From: Candidatus Daviesbacteria bacterium GW2011_GWA1_41_61 | GTDB taxonomy: Bacteria > Patescibacteriota > Microgenomatia > Daviesbacterales > UBA10151 | Length of the DNA stretch: 64,000 nt | Assembly: GCA_000997385.1 (NCBI GenBank) | Contig: LCBT01000002.1 | Coordinates: 119,424-183,423 of the forward strand | Reading direction: 5' to 3' | Part shown: in pieces, positions 56,231 to 63,190 of the stretch | Position numbering within the stretch: position 1 is the first letter of the stretch | Layout: each line of letters starts with the position of its first letter | Made by a program: the position numbers and the translations under genes | The notes under the pieces: model-generated | Databases searched by the model: none | The model's input: only the letters and a program-made list of their open reading frames with translations | What the model was told of the DNA's origin: nothing

Positions 56231-58792
56231 TTGGCTGGTTTTATGAAATTCACTAAATTTTTTTCCTGGACATTCTTAGGTTTGGCCTTTGTTACTTTTA
56301 TTTTCTTCTCCGGCATTGTTTCCTTGATTACTGACTGGTGGTGGTACCAAGAAGTAGGGTTTACCGAAATCTTTATCAAATCGCTCAGCGCAAAAATCAT
56401 TGTGGGAGCTCTAGTAGGAATTCTTGCTGCTGCCTTTCTTCTTACCAACTTATCTTTTGCCATCCGTTCAAAAATACCCTGGATGGCAGCCATCCCCGAA
56501 GCCCTAATTGGTACTAATCAACCCCTTAGCCTGAATAGCCGCTTACTTGGAAAGCTCGGCATTATTTTAAGCTGTATTATTGCCCTTTTTATCGGTCTTT
56601 TAGCCTCAAGCAGCTGGCACGAGGTTTTAAAGTTCCTATCAAGCGTGCCATTTGGCCAAAAAGACCCGATATTTGCTGCTGACGTATCTTTTTACGTGTT
56701 TTCCCTGCCTGTTTTTTCTTTGGGGCTTGGCCTTATAAAAACCGTTATTTTAATATCGCTTATCGGTTGCGGCGCAATCTACATTCTGCGGGGCAGCCTC
56801 AATTTATCAAGCCTTTTCCCTAAAATTAACCTCTCCAAATTAACCGGAAAACCTGAAAGTCTGATTATTAGACCTACGAAAGATCAAACCGAACCAAAAG
56901 CCAGACTGCATATCAGCATTCTGCTAGCTCTTTTTCTTACAACCATTGCCGTCGGTACCTATCTTTCTCTCTATAATTTACTTACCAGCCAGAGCGGCCC
57001 GGTGTTTGGCGCGACCTTCACCGATGCCAATGTCATGGTACCGATCCTTCGCGTATCTGTTTTTGTTTACGGGGCGGCTGCCATCCTGGCATTATTTTAT
57101 GGTGTGAGCGGAAAAATTGCGCCTCTTTTTGGAGCAATTTTTTTAACTGTAATAGTCGGGTTTGCTTCTTCAATCATCCCTGGTGTTTTTCAAAAACTGG
57201 TGGTTGCACCCAATGAACTTACCAAAGAAACGCCTTTTATCAAATACAATATTGAGGCCACCAATAAGGCTTATGGTCTGGACAGAGTGGAAGAGCGGGA
57301 AATAGCCGCGGATAAACCGATTACAGCTCCTGATATAGCAGCCAACAATCTGACCATCAAGAATGTCAGACTGTGGGACAGAGCGCCGCTCCTGTCCACT
57401 TTTTCGCAAATCCAGGAGATTAGAACTTACTACGAGTTTACCTCTATTGATAACGATCGTTATACAATCAACAATGAACTGCGCCAAATTATGCTTTCTC
57501 CCCGGGAATTAGCCTCGGACAGCCTGCCGAACAAAAACTGGATTAACGAGCGGCTGACCTTTACTCACGGCTATGGGGTTGCCGGCGGACCAGTGAACCA
57601 GGTTACTCCGGAAGGATTGCCGGTTTTATTTGTCAAAGACTTACCTCCAAAATCCGAAGTCAAAGAACTTGAGGTCACAAGACCGGAGGTTTACTACGGG
57701 GAAATCCCCAATGATTATGTCATAGTCAAAACAAAGTCCAAAGAATTTGATTATCCCAAAGGAGATGAAAATGTGTATACTACATACGGCGGAGTAGGTG
57801 GCGTTGAGATTAACTCACCCCTTCGCCGATTCCTGTATGCGCTGCGCTTTGGTTCCCTCAAATTATTTTTATCTGCTGATGTAACATCGGAGAGCCGTAT
57901 CCTTTATTATCGCAATATAAAAGAAAGAGTTGCTAAAATTGCCCCGTTTCTTGCCTTTGACCGAGACCCATACCTTGTAATCGCTGAAGGTAAAATGTAT
58001 TGGGTACTTGATGCCTATACCTCAACAGACCATTATCCGTATTCTCAACCGCTACCGCTAAATGGCGGTAACGTAAACTATATAAGAAATTCAGTCAAGG
58101 CAGTAATAGACGCTTACAACGGGACAATCAAATTCTATCAAACAGATCCGGATGATCCGATTATCAAAACCTACGCCAAAATTTTCCCCAAAACTTTCCT
58201 TCCACTAACTGAGCTGCCCAAAAGTTTAACTGCTCATTTGCGTTATCCGCAAGATTTGTTCACTCTGCAAACAGCAATCTACACAACCTATCATATGGAT
58301 GATCCGCAGATTTTCTACAACAAAGAGGACCAGTGGGAAATTCCTGCTATTGCCCAGGGGGGCGAGGCACAACCAGCCAAGGTACCGGTAATGGATCCTC
58401 GGCACATGATTATGAAGCTTCCCGGTGAGAAAGCCGAGGAGTATATTTTGATGCTGCCGTTTACCCCGCGGGCAAAAGATAATCTCTCTGCCTGGATGGT
58501 GGCCAGAAATGACGGAGAGCAGTATGGTAAGCTGGTTGTCTACCGCTTCCCCAAGGATAAACTGGTATTTGGTCCCAAACAGATTATCGGCCGAATCAGT
58601 CAGGATGCGCAGATCAGTCAGCAGATTTCCCTTTGGGATCAGGGCGGTTCGGAGGTAATTCAAGGCCCGCTTCTGGTCATTCCAATTGAGGAGTCTTTGG
58701 TCTATGTCCGTCCGCTCTACCTTGAAAAATCCCCGAACTCAAACGGGTCATTGTTGCATATGAGAACAAAATTGCCATGGAAGAAACATTAG
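56231..58792 (+). CDS. UPF0182-family large membrane protein, N-terminal 853 codons up to a frameshift
   Basis: The N-terminus DWWWYQEVGFTEIF has 7 TM helices followed by a large soluble region typical of UPF0182. The reading frame continues in the -1 frame from 58726 (see the next feature). Confidence 0.7.
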   Translation: MAGFMKFTKFFSWTFLGLAFVTFIFFSGIVSLITDWWWYQEVGFTEIFIKSLSAKIIVGALVGILAAAFLLTNLSFAIRSKIPWMAAIPEALIGTNQPLSLNSRLLGKLGIILSCIIALFIGLLASSSWHEVLKFLSSVPFGQKDPIFAADVSFYVFSLPVFSLGLGLIKTVILISLIGCGAIYILRGSLNLSSLFPKINLSKLTGKPESLIIRPTKDQTEPKARLHISILLALFLTTIAVGTYLSLYNLLTSQSGPVFGATFTDANVMVPILRVSVFVYGAAAILALFYGVSGKIAPLFGAIFLTVIVGFASSIIPGVFQKLVVAPNELTKETPFIKYNIEATNKAYGLDRVEEREIAADKPITAPDIAANNLTIKNVRLWDRAPLLSTFSQIQEIRTYYEFTSIDNDRYTINNELRQIMLSPRELASDSLPNKNWINERLTFTHGYGVAGGPVNQVTPEGLPVLFVKDLPPKSEVKELEVTRPEVYYGEIPNDYVIVKTKSKEFDYPKGDENVYTTYGGVGGVEINSPLRRFLYALRFGSLKLFLSADVTSESRILYYRNIKERVAKIAPFLAFDRDPYLVIAEGKMYWVLDAYTSTDHYPYSQPLPLNGGNVNYIRNSVKAVIDAYNGTIKFYQTDPDDPIIKTYAKIFPKTFLPLTELPKSLTAHLRYPQDLFTLQTAIYTTYHMDDPQIFYNKEDQWEIPAIAQGGEAQPAKVPVMDPRHMIMKLPGEKAEEYILMLPFTPRAKDNLSAWMVARNDGEQYGKLVVYRFPKDKLVFGPKQIIGRISQDAQISQQISLWDQGGSEVIQGPLLVIPIEESLVYVRPLYLEKSPNSNGSLLHMRTKLPWKKH

Positions 58793-59028
58793 AAGCAGGT
58801 CTTGCTAAGATATTTGGCACTGCCGAGGGCAAAGTAAAACCATCCGGGGAAACACCTGCCCCGAGTGCATCTACCGATGGAAGCAAAGAAGGTCTCCTTC
58901 AACAAGCCAGTCAGGCGTATGAAGCTGCTATCCGTGCACAACGGGAAGGAGATTGGGGGAGATACGGAGAGGAAATAAAACGCTTAGGAGAAATCCTAAA
59001 TAAGCTAAGCTTGCGTTCTTCGAACTAA
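58726..59028 (+). pseudogene. Frameshifted C-terminal continuation of the UPF0182 gene (-1 frame)
   Basis: Frame B reads KIPELKRVIVAYENKIAMEETLEAGLAKIFG..., a sensible continuation of ...PLYLEKSP. The shift maps to a C4 run at 58731-58734. Confidence 0.55.
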
Positions 59029-59128
59029 AGCTGCGCTAATACTTTAATTAGTCAATTTGTTTTCAATCATCTTTTCAACTTTTCTTTTTGCTTCCTCTAA
59101 AAGCTCTTTTGATTTTTTCCTCGATATA

Positions 59129-59710
59129 TTATTTTGCATTTTCTAACCAAGTTGCAAAATTGTTATATCCATTTCCGCTTATCCAATCATAACACTGAAC
59201 CCAACTTGACAGCTTGAAACCCTTGCCCCAATACTGTCTATCAAAACTGGCTGTCTTGGACGGCAAATCCTGATAAATCTTCCAATCTGTTCCGTCGTGT
59301 TCGTAATAGGTAATTCTCCTTCCGTCTTCGCTTGTCACAAATCCTAGAAAATCAAACGGATTTTGCCCCTGAAAAAAAGTCTGTCTATTTTTGTCAGGTA
59401 CGCTGTTTATATGAACGCCAAACAATGTATTTCCTCGATCATAACTTTTTAATATTTCGTACCTAACCCAACGCCTGTTCCAAGTATTTGTGCCAATAAG
59501 AACACAAGTAACGGTTGTGTCATCAAGGTTTGAATTTATAAGTCGTTTTACTGAATCGGCACCGTATCTTTTTGCATCTTCCCAAATTGAGGCATCAAAA
59601 AATCCTGCTTCTTGACCATTCGCTTTTGTAAAACCATGATTTCTTACAACATTGGCACGAAATGTTTTTACATCGTCATAATGAAAACTGAAGAATACCT
59701 GCTTTGCCAT
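59129..59710 (-). CDS. TIR-like domain protein (ThsB-like, DUF1863-type)
   Basis: From the internal Met it reads MAKQVFFSFHYDDVKTFRANVVRNHG ... FDASIWEDAK ... VTCVLIGTNTWNRRWVRYEI ... GVHIN ... NPFDFLG. This closely resembles Thoeris ThsB-type TIR proteins, as recalled from memory. The ATG lies 2 nt after the stop of the upstream TM-protein gene. Confidence 0.6.
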   Translation of the reverse strand: MAKQVFFSFHYDDVKTFRANVVRNHGFTKANGQEAGFFDASIWEDAKRYGADSVKRLINSNLDDTTVTCVLIGTNTWNRRWVRYEILKSYDRGNTLFGVHINSVPDKNRQTFFQGQNPFDFLGFVTSEDGRRITYYEHDGTDWKIYQDLPSKTASFDRQYWGKGFKLSSWVQCYDWISGNGYNNFATWLENAK

Positions 59711-59712
59711 AT

Positions 59713-60114
59713 TTAGTTTATTAAATACACAATAAAAAGCATGATAAAAATTAGGGATAGATAAAACCACAAAAGAGTCAGTGAAGACATTGAGCTTAAC
59801 CAACTGTTGCGCTTGTTCTTTTTATACTTCCGCGTGTCCATGGAAAAATCTATTTCTTTTTCATCAAGTTTTCTGACATCATCATATAAATCACGGAATA
59901 ATCGCTCTTGAGAAAGAAAATAACCGTCCAAAACCCAGAACATAATAACCGGAAAATAAGCAATGAAAATGTACTTCGGATTTGCATCCTTTGCAGATAA
60001 AGCAAAAAGTGCGGCAATCAATGTAATCGCCCATCCTTTCAGAAAAAACGAATTGCCTGCCATTTTATTGATGACTCCTTGAATGAACTCAAGATGTTTT
60101 CGCTTATTTTCCAT
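59713..60114 (-). CDS. Small 3-TM membrane protein coupled to the TIR gene (candidate effector, SLATT-like?)
   Basis: From MENKRKHLEF there are three hydrophobic helices (GWAITLIAALFALSA; IFIAYFPVIMFWVLDGYFL; LTLLWFYLSLIFIMLFIVYLI) and a charged loop. There are 2-nt gaps to both neighbours. No SIR2/SLOG/Macro domain is present. Confidence 0.45.
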   Translation of the reverse strand: MENKRKHLEFIQGVINKMAGNSFFLKGWAITLIAALFALSAKDANPKYIFIAYFPVIMFWVLDGYFLSQERLFRDLYDDVRKLDEKEIDFSMDTRKYKKNKRNSWLSSMSSLTLLWFYLSLIFIMLFIVYLIN

Positions 60115-60116
60115 AC

Positions 60117-60914
60117 TCAAATAATTACTGTTGCTTTTTCGTACAATATTGGTAAACAATCCTGCCTCATTCGAAATTTTGTGCCATGATTGTGCCCCGT
60201 GCGTGCGTCAAAATCCACAAGGATTTTGCCTTCTTCTAATGCTTTCAAAAATCCTTCAAAGCTGAATTTTTGCAACATCATTACTTTTGTGTAGTGATAA
60301 TATTCCTTTTTCCCTTCAATTTTTACTTCAGCCTGAACATAAAAAGTATTAAGTAATTTTGTTCCAGCTTTATGATCCAGATCATCAAAGCCCCAATATG
60401 GTTGTGGATTAAGTTCATCTAGTCCAACACGCTTTTTGACAGATTCAAGCCATTCTTTATGCCTTTTATCAACGCTTTCTGCATCGAAAGAAATTAAAAT
60501 TTTCCGCTCCTTACGGTCAATTACTACCATGAAACCACGATCGCTTCTTGCCAGCCCATGGATAGTAAGGCGAAAACTCATCTCGCCTTTTTGATATTTT
60601 TTACCGTCTTCTTGATGCGTCCAGCCGTATCCAGGCAAAAGGACTTGGGGGACGAAACGAACTGCTCTAGGTGAAGGCTCGGTATGAAAAAGGGTTGTAA
60701 GAGATGAAGAATTGAGTCGTTGCGCTTTTAATTCCCACTCCGCAGCATTTGGAATTGGTAAATTATTTTCTTTAATATCAAGTAAATCTTCGAGTGTGTT
60801 CCCTATCCCACCAGAGTTATCTCGCCGGGCGTTCGTAACCCAACCCATAGCGGCAATTTCTTTAAGTTTATCAATTAATGTTTGCTTTGAATAAATAATA
60901 GGTTTATCTGTCAT
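60117..60914 (-). CDS. Type II restriction endonuclease, MvaI/BcnI family
   Basis: GNTLEDLLDIKENNLPIPNAAEWELKAQRLNSSSLTTLFHTEP parallels the BcnI/MvaI N-terminal catalytic region (ENN ... GE.ELK ... NLTLFH..P). It is about 265 aa and immediately downstream of an N4-cytosine methyltransferase. Confidence 0.7.
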   Translation of the reverse strand: MTDKPIIYSKQTLIDKLKEIAAMGWVTNARRDNSGGIGNTLEDLLDIKENNLPIPNAAEWELKAQRLNSSSLTTLFHTEPSPRAVRFVPQVLLPGYGWTHQEDGKKYQKGEMSFRLTIHGLARSDRGFMVVIDRKERKILISFDAESVDKRHKEWLESVKKRVGLDELNPQPYWGFDDLDHKAGTKLLNTFYVQAEVKIEGKKEYYHYTKVMMLQKFSFEGFLKALEEGKILVDFDARTGHNHGTKFRMRQDCLPILYEKATVII

Positions 60915-60920
60915 TGTTAT

Positions 60921-61730
60921 TTACAAAAGACTAATTTGAGATTGGTCTATTCTAATCCTTTCTTCAGCCATATCGCAATATTCTGGCGAGATATCTATCC
61001 CAATATAATTTCGTTTGAAGTTTAGAGCGGATATTGCAGTTGTGCCAGATCCCATAAAAGGATCAAGGATAACTTTTGCATTTGTTGACGAGATAATTCG
61101 ATCAATTAATTTGACAGGGAAAGCGGCAGGGTGTTCGTTTTTCATCTCTTGTGTAAATTCCCAAACATCACCGTAAGCATTGGCTTTTGGTGCAAGTTTA
61201 AACCTCGGCTTTGCAATAAGATAAATTACCTCATAGGTGGGAAGAAAGTACCCTGCATTAAAATTAAGACCTCCTTTCCTCTTCCAAATAATAATTTGCC
61301 TGACAGGAAATCCAGCAACGATATCTTGACGATCTTGTAACAAGCCATCTTGAACACGCCATTTATGATTGTAGAAAATCGCGCCATCTTCTGGAATTAT
61401 TCTCATCATTTCATTCAAACACTCTTTTTGCCATTTAACATATCCATCATGGGGCATACAATCGTCGTGATGTGTGTATCCATTTTGGAGTGCAGCATTT
61501 GCCCACTTTCCGCCACGCCCATCTTTCATGCCGTTACCAGTTGAATTTTTGAGATTATACGGTGGTGAGGTAACAACTAAATCAACCTTTCCATCAGAGA
61601 TTTGCTTCATTATCTCGACAGCATCACCACATAGAATTCGATTTATAAAATCTTCCGGATATAAAAGCTTTTTAACACTCTTTTTGTTAGACTGATAGTC
61701 TAATCCAGTTTTGTTTATACCTTGTGGCAT
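60921..61730 (-). CDS. DNA N4-cytosine (or N6-adenine) methyltransferase, beta class, SPPY motif
   Basis: Motif IV DLVVTSPPYN precedes motif I DPFMGSGTT. The likely start is MPQGINK at 61730, 7 nt after the LexA-1 stop. The listed ORF extends to 61763. Confidence 0.8.
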   Translation of the reverse strand: MPQGINKTGLDYQSNKKSVKKLLYPEDFINRILCGDAVEIMKQISDGKVDLVVTSPPYNLKNSTGNGMKDGRGGKWANAALQNGYTHHDDCMPHDGYVKWQKECLNEMMRIIPEDGAIFYNHKWRVQDGLLQDRQDIVAGFPVRQIIIWKRKGGLNFNAGYFLPTYEVIYLIAKPRFKLAPKANAYGDVWEFTQEMKNEHPAAFPVKLIDRIISSTNAKVILDPFMGSGTTAISALNFKRNYIGIDISPEYCDMAEERIRIDQSQISLL

Positions 61731-61737
61731 TATAATA

Positions 61738-62355
61738 TTATCCATTGATTTTACTCTTCCCAAGTATACCTACAACCTTACCTAATAATCTAGTCTCAGG
61801 GTATATGGGAATATTTCTATATTTTGGGTTCTCCGGTTTCAGATAAACCTTACCATCAGCATGAATAAATCTTTTAACAGTAGTCTCGCCATCCCAACGG
61901 GCTAAAACTATGTCACCGTTTTTAAAGTCTTTTGCATACCTTACTAAAACAGCATCATCATCCTGTATTCCAGCACCAATCATAGAGTCTCCTTTTACTT
62001 TTACTACAAATAAATCTACTGTTGTTTCAATATCGCCTGCTGCTTTCCATTCAATATCTTCAAACGCTTGCATATATGCACCAGCTGCGCTGATTCCTAC
62101 ATATGGCATTATTGGTTGCGTGTCAAGAGCCTCAAATCCTTTTTGCAGAATCTTTAGTCCTCGTGCCATACCTTCTTCCTTCTTAATAAATCCCTTATTT
62201 TCTAATAAGCGCAAAAGGTCTAAAACTGATTGATTTGAAGAAACATTTAGTTCTTCGCGAAGATCTGCGAGTGTTGGGGGAAAACCTGAATCTTTGAGAG
62301 ATCGATAGATAGCTCTGAGCGTCTGTTTTTGCCGGGGGGTTAATTTACTTTTCAT
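61738..62355 (-). CDS. lexA: LexA-type S24 repressor, paralog 1
   Basis: LexA winged-helix N-terminus (LTPRQKQTLRAIYRSL ... FPPTLADLREELNVSSNQSV), an Ala-Gly cleavage site (SAAGAY), Ser (GDSM) and Lys (VKRF) of the S24 peptidase. The true ATG is 62353-62355. The listed ORF starts at a TTG inside the promoter. Confidence 0.8.
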   Translation of the reverse strand: MKSKLTPRQKQTLRAIYRSLKDSGFPPTLADLREELNVSSNQSVLDLLRLLENKGFIKKEEGMARGLKILQKGFEALDTQPIMPYVGISAAGAYMQAFEDIEWKAAGDIETTVDLFVVKVKGDSMIGAGIQDDDAVLVRYAKDFKNGDIVLARWDGETTVKRFIHADGKVYLKPENPKYRNIPIYPETRLLGKVVGILGKSKING

Positions 62356-62362
62356 AGAGTAA

Positions 62363-62391
62363 AATATACTGACTATATAGTCAGTTGTCAA
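62363..62391 (-). promoter_or_regulatory. Promoter TTGACA-N17-TATATT with the 18-bp palindrome ACTGACTATATAGTCAGT filling the spacer (putative LexA operator)
   Basis: -35 is rc of 62386-62391, the palindrome is at 62368-62385, and -10 is rc of 62363-62368. The ATG is 7 nt downstream, so the transcript is leaderless or nearly so. Confidence 0.6.
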
Positions 62392-62498
62392 GATAGCAAA
62401 TTATACAGCTTTCTTTGAGCCCGTAAACTGCCTCTTCATTTTTGAATATCTTTCCAATCACATCTTCGGCTTTATTTGGTTTTATAGTTGGCATAAGT

Positions 62499-63137
62499 TT
62501 AAGAAATCATCCTCCATTGACCATTTTTCAAAACAGAAATAACTTTACCCTCTAAAACCACGTCTTCTGTAAAGTAAATAATTTCATACTTTGGATTTTC
62601 CGGTTTTAAATAAAGATATGGCGGTTTATCTTCCGAAATAAAACGTTTTACCATAGACTCATCTCCGACTTTTGCCAGTACAACATCTCCCGAAACGAAT
62701 TCTTTTTGACTTTTTACCAATACTTTGTCCCCATCATCTATTCCCGCATTGATCATCGAGTCGCCTGAGATTTGAAGAAGAAAAACATTATCTTGAAGCA
62801 TTGCAACCTGAGAAGAAAGAATTTGCCATTCACCGGAAATTTCAATGGCTTGAAGAGGAACGCCTGCGGATGTAGCACCCAGGAAGGGAGCAATTGGTGG
62901 TTTGCCGAGTACCTCGTAGCCAAGAGGCAATATCGTTATGCTTCGCGCTTGGGATTCGTTGCGCTTAATGAGCTTTTTCTTTTCCAGTTTCGCTAATAGA
63001 TCAATCACTGACTGATTGGAGGAGACGTTTAGTTGCTCTCGCAATTCTTCAAAAGTCGGAGGATAACCCGTACTTATAATATACCTGTAAAGGTTTTCCA
63101 GTAATTCCTTCTGCCTTTCCGTGATGGAAGAAACCAT
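62499..63137 (-). CDS. lexA: LexA-type S24 repressor, paralog 2
   Basis: ITERQKELLENLYRYI ... YPPTFEELREQLNVSSNQSV, an Ala-Gly site (TSAGVP), GDSM Ser and VKRF Lys. Confidence 0.8.
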   Translation of the reverse strand: MVSSITERQKELLENLYRYIISTGYPPTFEELREQLNVSSNQSVIDLLAKLEKKKLIKRNESQARSITILPLGYEVLGKPPIAPFLGATSAGVPLQAIEISGEWQILSSQVAMLQDNVFLLQISGDSMINAGIDDGDKVLVKSQKEFVSGDVVLAKVGDESMVKRFISEDKPPYLYLKPENPKYEIIYFTEDVVLEGKVISVLKNGQWRMIS

Positions 63138-63146
63138 AGCAATTCA

Positions 63147-63175
63147 AATATACCCGACTATTTAGTCGGGGTCAA
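63147..63175 (-). promoter_or_regulatory. Promoter TTGACC-N17-TATATT with the 18-bp palindrome CCCGACTA(AA/TT)TAGTCGGG in the spacer (putative second LexA operator)
   Basis: The palindrome is at 63153-63170. It shares the core GACTA-NN-TAGTC and the same promoter architecture as the site upstream of paralog 1. Confidence 0.6.
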
Positions 63176-63190
63176 GAGGCAATTGTAACC

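Follow-up and report, generated by a model that had tools for sequence, protein, structure and literature searches.

Most knowledge of how restriction-modification (R-M) systems are made safe and turned on comes from controller proteins (C-proteins) and from methylase autoregulation. In C-protein systems such as PvuII, BamHI, Esp1396I and AhdI, a DNA-binding autoregulator heads the R-M genes and binds to a palindrome in its own promoter. Immune genes are tied to a damage sensor by the DNA-damage-responsive WYL-type regulators DdaA, BrxR and CapW and by CapH/CapP of the cyclic-oligonucleotide-based antiphage signalling systems (CBASS), and promoters of R-M, Zorya and CRISPR-Cas systems are reportedly under the control of DdaA in Moraxellaceae (PMC12392091). 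In SOS toxin modules (symE, tisB, yafNO and the colicins) a LexA operator precedes the gene for a nuclease or toxin that could harm the cell itself (PMC3874152). Here we analyse a 64,000-nucleotide window (contig LCBT01000002.1, positions 119,424 to 183,423) of Candidatus Daviesbacteria bacterium GW2011_GWA1_41_61, a member of the Candidate Phyla Radiation (CPR), in which the genes for a methylase (M) and an MvaI/BcnI-family nuclease (R) follow a lexA gene, lexA-1. Our preferred reading, to which we give a probability of about 0.6, is that M and R are cistrons of a LexA-autorepressed lexA-1 operon that would be derepressed by DNA damage, that the M/R balance is set by the M–R cassette, and that the block was imported. 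The arrangement suggests that DNA damage controls this immunity.

The locus resembles the C-protein systems in having a DNA-binding autoregulator, with a palindrome in its promoter, at the head of R-M genes. Unlike them, it has no small Xre-type C gene and no C-box. Its regulator, a full-length LexA that includes a self-cleaving S24 domain, would act purely as a damage-responsive repressor and, not lying between M and R, cannot delay R. Compared with WYL and CapH/CapP control, LexA itself would be the sensor here; its gene lies in the predicted R-M operon, and it would work by repression and self-cleavage rather than through a WYL activator or a separate protease. The SOS toxin genes are regulon members at separate promoters, whereas M and R would be read as part of the lexA transcript and together make up a complete R-M system. 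Such a system, carried as a lexA cistron with exchangeable cargo across a lineage, resembles C-protein and WYL or CapH/CapP control but is a member of neither. The features of the locus are as follows, in window coordinates.

63147–63175, minus strand: lexA-2 promoter, TTGACC-17-TATATT, 10/12 consensus positions; same architecture in loci L167, L168, L169 and L171.
63153–63170, minus strand: putative lexA-2 operator CCGACTAAATAGTCGG, filling the promoter spacer.
62499–63137, minus strand: lexA-2, resident, widely distributed CPR-type LexA, 212 aa (TIGR00498, 3.5e-42).
62363–62391, minus strand: lexA-1 promoter, TTGACA-17-TATATT, 11/12 consensus positions.
62368–62385, minus strand: putative lexA-1 operator, a perfect 18-bp palindrome ACTGACTATATAGTCAGT filling the promoter spacer.
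61738–62355, minus strand: lexA-1, 205 aa (TIGR00498, 1.2e-44), first gene of the apparently imported block.
60921–61745, minus strand: M, beta-class SPPY methylase (PF01555), with an 8-nt overlap with lexA-1, or a 7-nt gap from the ATG at 61730.
60117–60914, minus strand: R, MvaI/BcnI-family nuclease, 265 aa (PF15515); ATG 6 nt past the M stop.
59713–60114, minus strand: membrane protein, 133 aa (PADLOC candidate PDC-M50A, PDLC04686, 4.3e-55); ATG 2 nt past the R stop.
59129–59710, minus strand: ThsB-type TIR protein, 193 aa (PF08937, ThsB_TIR, 2.4e-20), last gene of the apparently imported block; ATG 2 nt past the preceding stop.

The last five genes, from lexA-1 to the TIR gene, are separated by gaps of no more than 7 nt. 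Their sequences indicate that M and R are a real type IIP R-M pair, cistrons 2 and 3 of a predicted five-gene operon, with R presumably a nuclease of the monomer type. Taken alone, the pair is ordinary, a further member of a known family.

Co-transcription and LexA repression are inferred from comparison, which supports them well. The compared loci carry L-number labels. Every relative of lexA-1 (60–73% identical) with readable downstream sequence has an R-M gene directly next to it, of varying kind, and the relatives of lexA-2 (72–92% identical; L167, L168, L169/170 and L171, including Levybacteria and Portnoybacteria) all carry a type-I-like pair. Counting both window genes, 16 of 16 resolved lexA genes of the clade have an R-M gene directly downstream: an MvaI-type pair in four cases, a HinfI-type pair in one, a DPPY beta-methylase in one and type-I-like methylase and specificity genes (M+S) in ten, a remnant in the window included. 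The cargoes behind lexA in the compared loci include the following.

L001, L082, L183: MvaI-type M–R pair.
L164: 537-aa methylase and HinfI-family nuclease.
L084: DPPY beta-methylase.
L163, L165, L166, L172, L173: type-I-like methylase of ~650 aa, with an N-terminal nuclease-like domain, and type I specificity subunit.

As a control, 38 other LexA loci (31–41% identical, mostly apparently not CPR) were examined; none has a DNA methylase or nuclease downstream, the neighbours being HAD hydrolases, Y-family polymerases and ABC transporters. In this CPR clade the slot immediately after lexA appears always to be taken by an R-M system, of exchangeable kind. Outside the window, the MvaI-type pair itself follows lexA in L001, L082, L183 and the distant L005, with start and stop codons that overlap or nearly touch; these four, together with the R-M neighbours of all 16 clade genes, lend comparative backing to the proposal of an earlier, first-pass annotation of this DNA that the pair is expressed from the lexA-1 promoter. 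In L183, lexA comes after ruvC-ruvA-ruvB, which gives it the look of a resident gene tied to repair and not of a stray regulator. The literature searched, which lacked Sanchez-Osuna et al. 2017 on the SOS network of Patescibacteria, contained no description of lexA–R-M operons in CPR.

Junctions between lexA and its cargo are mostly gaps of at most 18 nt or overlaps, reaching 145 nt by gene calls in L172 and L173. One form, AATGnnTAA, places the downstream ATG across the lexA stop and is met repeatedly with unrelated cargo (L163, L165, L166 and L183). In the window, the M start 7 nt after lexA-1 reported by the first-pass annotation exists, at ATG 61730 past the lexA-1 TAA; a second ATG in the same frame, at 61745, gives an 8-nt overlap with the lexA-1 stop (ATGGATAA), and this overlapping start is the form conserved at other loci. 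M in ordinary cassettes starts 4–10 codons before the conserved core. That start codon is missing in the window and L001, where a ~27-codon N-terminal extension runs back to an ATG within the lexA stop region, the position that the M start also has in L183.

Three loci bear further on lexA-like genes beside defence genes. L084 (4989–8407) has a LexA-1-type gene, the DPPY beta-methylase, a convergent 238-aa open reading frame (ORF) with no family match (possibly a nuclease), an apparent reverse transcriptase gene (306 aa, by eye) and a helix-turn-helix (HTH) gene, which together would be a small defence island behind lexA. L005 (845–3649) has a 205-aa LexA-like protein, 29% identical to LexA-1, and L012 (207–3006) a 228-aa HTH-S24 protein, each directly before the same M–R pair. 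In L012 a divergent small gene with an HNH motif (by eye) lies immediately upstream, and L005 has a similar gene there and a second small ORF; the two may represent an independent module of HNH gene and S24 regulator followed by M and R.

Both LexA proteins, each with an N-terminal DNA-binding domain and an S24 domain, exceed the TIGR00498 equivalog cut-off of 111 bits, scoring 152 and 144. LexA-1 has the Ala-Gly cleavage site and the catalytic Ser/Lys dyad, and the glycine of the site (G92) and both dyad residues (S124 and K161) are invariant in the LexA alignment; lexA-2 has 1487 relatives at E ≤ 1e-30, some of them 92–100% identical. No recA gene is present in the 64-kb window. The two lexA promoters are the top minus-strand promoter matches within 58.9–63.5 kb, and from lexA-1 through the TIR gene there is no promoter or terminator of comparable strength, the best promoter matches there reaching 9/12. 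The ORF list places the lexA-1 start at a TTG at 62391, which we reject as being the −35 hexamer, and we take the ATG at 62355 as the true start. Because this ATG lies only 7 nt downstream of the −10 element, the lexA-1 mRNA would be nearly leaderless.

Across the 64 kb, GACTANNTAGTC is confined to the lexA-1 and lexA-2 promoters. The palindrome fills the −35/−10 spacer of lexA in nine LexA-1-type loci with aligned promoters, and its motif also lies 5′ of lexA in L172 and L173. All lexA genes of the clade have it between −35 and −10. Every CPR LexA locus that was scanned shows the motif just 5′ of lexA, and the remainder of 1.63 Mb is nearly devoid of it. We infer that the palindrome is a LexA operator serving autoregulation. 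A terminator scan also flags both operator palindromes (62368–62385 and 63153–63170), each a stem followed by a T-rich −10, and the lexA-1 operator could be a weak attenuator if transcribed by lexA-2 read-through. Within the N-terminal extension of M, at 61687–61703, lies a 7+7 palindrome, TTAGACTATCAGTCTAA (minus, coding strand), with GACT/AGTC half-sites as in the LexA operator but with a 3-nt rather than a 4-nt centre. It is probably a chance occurrence because it is not conserved in L001 (…GACCATCA…).

M and R would be translated from the lexA-1 transcript, possibly supplemented by lexA-2 read-through. At rest, LexA autorepression would keep expression of both low, and on DNA damage or infection activated RecA would trigger LexA self-cleavage and derepression. 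M would be made first, followed by R, which begins 6 nt past the M stop with no ribosome-binding site, a layout that implies translational coupling. The first-pass annotation had also supposed that the promoter arrangement times R against M. That part does not hold, as one shared upstream promoter cannot time them; cassette order and coupling would do so instead.

The M–R pair occurs in more than 570 genomes at 78–90% protein identity, across many CPR phyla and several archaeal bins, always with M directly upstream of R. This identity across phyla suggests very recent and frequent horizontal spread. Bins labelled Aenigmatarchaeota, Thermoplasmatota and Gammaproteobacteria contain it too; across loci L001–L080 the cassette always stands as two genes on their own, in unrelated surroundings. 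In 78 cassettes, most of them without LexA, the distance from M stop to R start is −17 to +12 nt, and a Shine-Dalgarno-like motif precedes R in only three of the 78 and is absent before the window R. Because these mostly LexA-free cassettes share the M-before-R order and this spacing, the M/R balance would be built into the cassette, and translational coupling thus appears to be the means by which the family makes M before R and keeps R from exceeding M in amount. The commonest upstream Pfam family is Peptidase_S24/LexA, yet it is found at only 5 of 68 scorable loci; HTH_3 neighbours occur in 2/68 and serine recombinases in 3/68. The family appears generally to lack a C-protein, and the ORF list of the window locus shows no small HTH ORF flanking the pair, in agreement with the first-pass annotation. 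No remnants of a lexA 3′ end were found upstream of cassettes without LexA. The idea of a phage-borne module was rejected, as none of eight viral contigs with a 56–66% identical nuclease carries a LexA-1-type gene.

The history of the locus emerges from comparison of the window with L167, which carries a LexA 92% identical to LexA-2. A 91% nucleotide match between the two begins at 63187, shortly before the lexA-2 promoter, and breaks off at 62412, 83 nt into a type-I-like methylase gene. Remnants of a former cargo mark both joints.

62412–62494, minus strand: 5′ remnant (first ~27 codons, MPTIKPNKAEDVIGKIFKNEEAVYGLKE) of a type-I-like methylase gene, left joint.
59060–59118, minus strand: 3′ remnant of a type-I specificity-subunit gene, right joint; 59 nt, 83% identical to L167 10409–10467, the end of its Methylase_S gene.

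A 38-codon remnant ORF spans from just past lexA-2 into the lexA-1 operator. These joints imply that ~3.3 kb (the lexA-1 promoter, lexA-1, M, R and the membrane and TIR protein genes) replaced ~3.7 kb of resident cargo, and the block at ~62411–59125 appears to have been imported, displacing a type-I-like methylase/specificity pair behind lexA-2. Outside the lexA-2 unit (63187 and 59060) the flanks of the window and L167 are unrelated even at the protein level, so the surroundings of the unit differ between the two genomes; its ends showed no terminal repeats. Over the last ~110 nt of lexA-1, identity between the window and L001 rises from ~60% to ~88%, and we considered whether a recombination joint or a hidden promoter lies there. 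This was dropped: clade members with other cargo keep the same end, and the identical-codon frequency there (0.66–0.67) is not clearly higher than elsewhere (0.48–0.67), so the conservation is mostly at the protein level.

The closest described relatives of R are MvaI (CC/WGG) and BcnI (CC/SGG), and the family assignment made by the first-pass annotation is borne out. R matches PF15515 (MvaI_BcnI) over the full profile (positions 1–227 of 227; 4.1e-66, 223.7 bits against a cut-off of 25). Relatedness to the individual enzymes is modest, 6.6e-18 for solved R.MvaI (2oa9; residues 15–254) and 1.5e-7 for solved R.BcnI (2odh; N-terminus only), and here the genes lie within a predicted lexA operon. 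The MvaI active site consists of Glu36, Asp50, Glu55 and Lys57, Asp50 ligating both metal ions (PMC1874612). In an ungapped alignment with MvaI, the equivalents in R are E42, N56, E61 and K63, so that three of the four are kept and Asp50 is replaced by Asn. This change formally touches a point that the first-pass annotation had held decisive, loss of the catalytic residues conserved in BcnI; the change is clade-wide and looks compensated, and the other three residues stand. Asn56 is fixed in 120 of 120 close homologues (full-length, 81–100% identical), and a recent inactivating mutation was rejected on this ground. In a set of representatives clustered at 50% identity, Asn marks the nearest subfamily, and the canonical Asp appears in relatives further away. 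At +3, an acidic residue is found in 16/17 of the representatives with Asn and in 12/34 of those with Asp, counts that are not phylogenetically independent. The metal ligand has probably relocated to Glu59, compensating for Asn56; if so, R would illustrate a natural shift of an active-site residue within the MvaI/BcnI family.

R keeps the equivalents of MvaI His223, His225 and Arg230, the His-x-His...Arg recognition motif (HNHGTKFR). MvaI reads the central base and the inner G with Arg209, for which R has Asp. Readout of the outer CC/GG may therefore be shared with MvaI, and that of the centre and inner base probably differs. Neither CCWGG nor CCSGG, the sites put forward by the first-pass annotation, is established as the target, the Arg209 equivalent being changed. 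By a Markov model, neither is depleted in the window (observed/expected 1.09 and 1.03). Site avoidance was discarded as a clue to specificity because the ratios for CCWGG, CCSGG, CCNGG and CCGG are all near 1 and hence uninformative.

The methylase ORF (60921–61763, minus strand) matches PF01555 (N6_N4_Mtase) at 2.3e-40 and has its motifs arranged as in the beta class, with IV (VVTSPPYN) ahead of I (DPFMGSGTT). Its best solved matches are 8s9n and 8s9m (3e-36), deposited as 'DNA cytosine-N4 methyltransferase'. These observations uphold the earlier description of an SPPY, beta-class, N4-cytosine-like enzyme, and M is probably of the N4-cytosine type. An SPPY amino-methyltransferase partner is a further likeness to MvaI, whose sites are protected by N4-cytosine methylation. 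Judging from two associated papers, 8s9n and 8s9m are the N4CMT of bdelloid rotifers, an SPPY beta-class enzyme and the closest solved relative of M. N4CMT differs in being a eukaryotic chromodomain fusion with an epigenetic role and no partner nuclease; those who described it put its nearest bacterial relatives among N4C enzymes for TCGA and CCSGG (PMC8885841).

Several points weigh against LexA control of a working R-M pair. The organism is uncultivated and the case for LexA control rests on comparison. Induction of a nuclease during DNA repair looks hazardous and runs contrary to the restriction alleviation logic of type I systems. LexA is not needed for the pair to function, since 63 of the 68 scorable cassettes (~93%) have no upstream LexA/S24 gene, and the canonical metal-binding Asp is missing from R. 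No clear terminator separates lexA-1 from lexA-2 upstream of it, which leaves the promoter hierarchy uncertain. Weak promoter-like matches (9/12) lie inside lexA-1 (62135–62108) and at the 3′ end of M (60978–60949), and these would serve an explanation in which the place behind lexA is a passive hot spot, a permissive landing site where M and R are expressed from a weak internal promoter of their own and LexA control is absent or incidental. The high mobility of the cassette, found in 572+ genomes, in unrelated contexts and usually without LexA, also fits such a hot spot. We nevertheless consider it unlikely: the lexA-linked copies have lost the native M start and upstream region and use an ATG inside the lexA stop region, the AATGnnTAA junction recurs with unrelated cargo, 16/16 against 0/38 is hard to obtain by neutral insertion alone, and nothing in a synonymous-site analysis pointed to a DNA element embedded in the lexA 3′ end.

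Replacement of the key two-metal ligand of MvaI raises a different possibility, that R is inactive or a nickase (Asp50 to Asn) and LexA controls the methylase for post-repair methylation or epigenetic regulation. The commonest CPR lexA cargo, a type-I-like M+S with no HsdR gene seen nearby, is in keeping with this, as is the reported conversion of BcnI into a strand-specific nickase by a single mutation (PMC3089477). It seems to us very improbable, because the fixation of Asn56 in the 120 homologues points to strong purifying selection, the association of Asn with an acidic +3 residue suggests that the ligand has moved, E42, E61 and K63 are intact, and the partner methylase is always kept beside the nuclease. 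The LexA-autorepressed operon is therefore the reading that we prefer. A tentative and rather doubtful extension of it is that promoter-operator, lexA and R-M genes form one portable, self-repressing, damage-sensing module in which cargo is swapped and the LexA head kept. This would fit the sharp ends of the 91%-identical lexA-2 unit, with unrelated flanks in the window and L167, and the import of the lexA-1 block with its own promoter. If it were true, LexA would be a cleavable equivalent of a C-protein, and running immunity or limiting self-restriction would be its principal job in tiny CPR genomes.

If R-M systems do recur as lexA cistrons across this lineage, the SOS response would be linked directly to innate immunity, and the poorly understood CPR SOS system would have a concrete, testable output. 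Possible gains would be a boost to defence when infection or a prophage burst gives damage signals, raised methylation when self-restriction or repair synthesis endangers the chromosome, and a burst followed by shut-off on entering a cell without repressor.

The last two genes of the operon are a candidate for a second, uncharacterised defence pair under the same LexA head. The TIR protein also matches PDC-M50B (PDLC04688) at 5.5e-56 and ThsB at 6.8e-53; PDC-M50 is only a candidate system in PADLOC. No ThsA (SIR2 or Macro) gene was found beside the pair. Beyond the right joint, a gene for an 853-aa UPF0182-like membrane protein (56231–58792) is apparently frameshifted near its 3′ end (region 58700–59028, plus strand). 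Its C-terminus seems to resume in another frame in an 83-aa ORF at 58777–59028 (…AMEETLEAGLAKIFG…), reflecting either an assembly error or a pseudogene.

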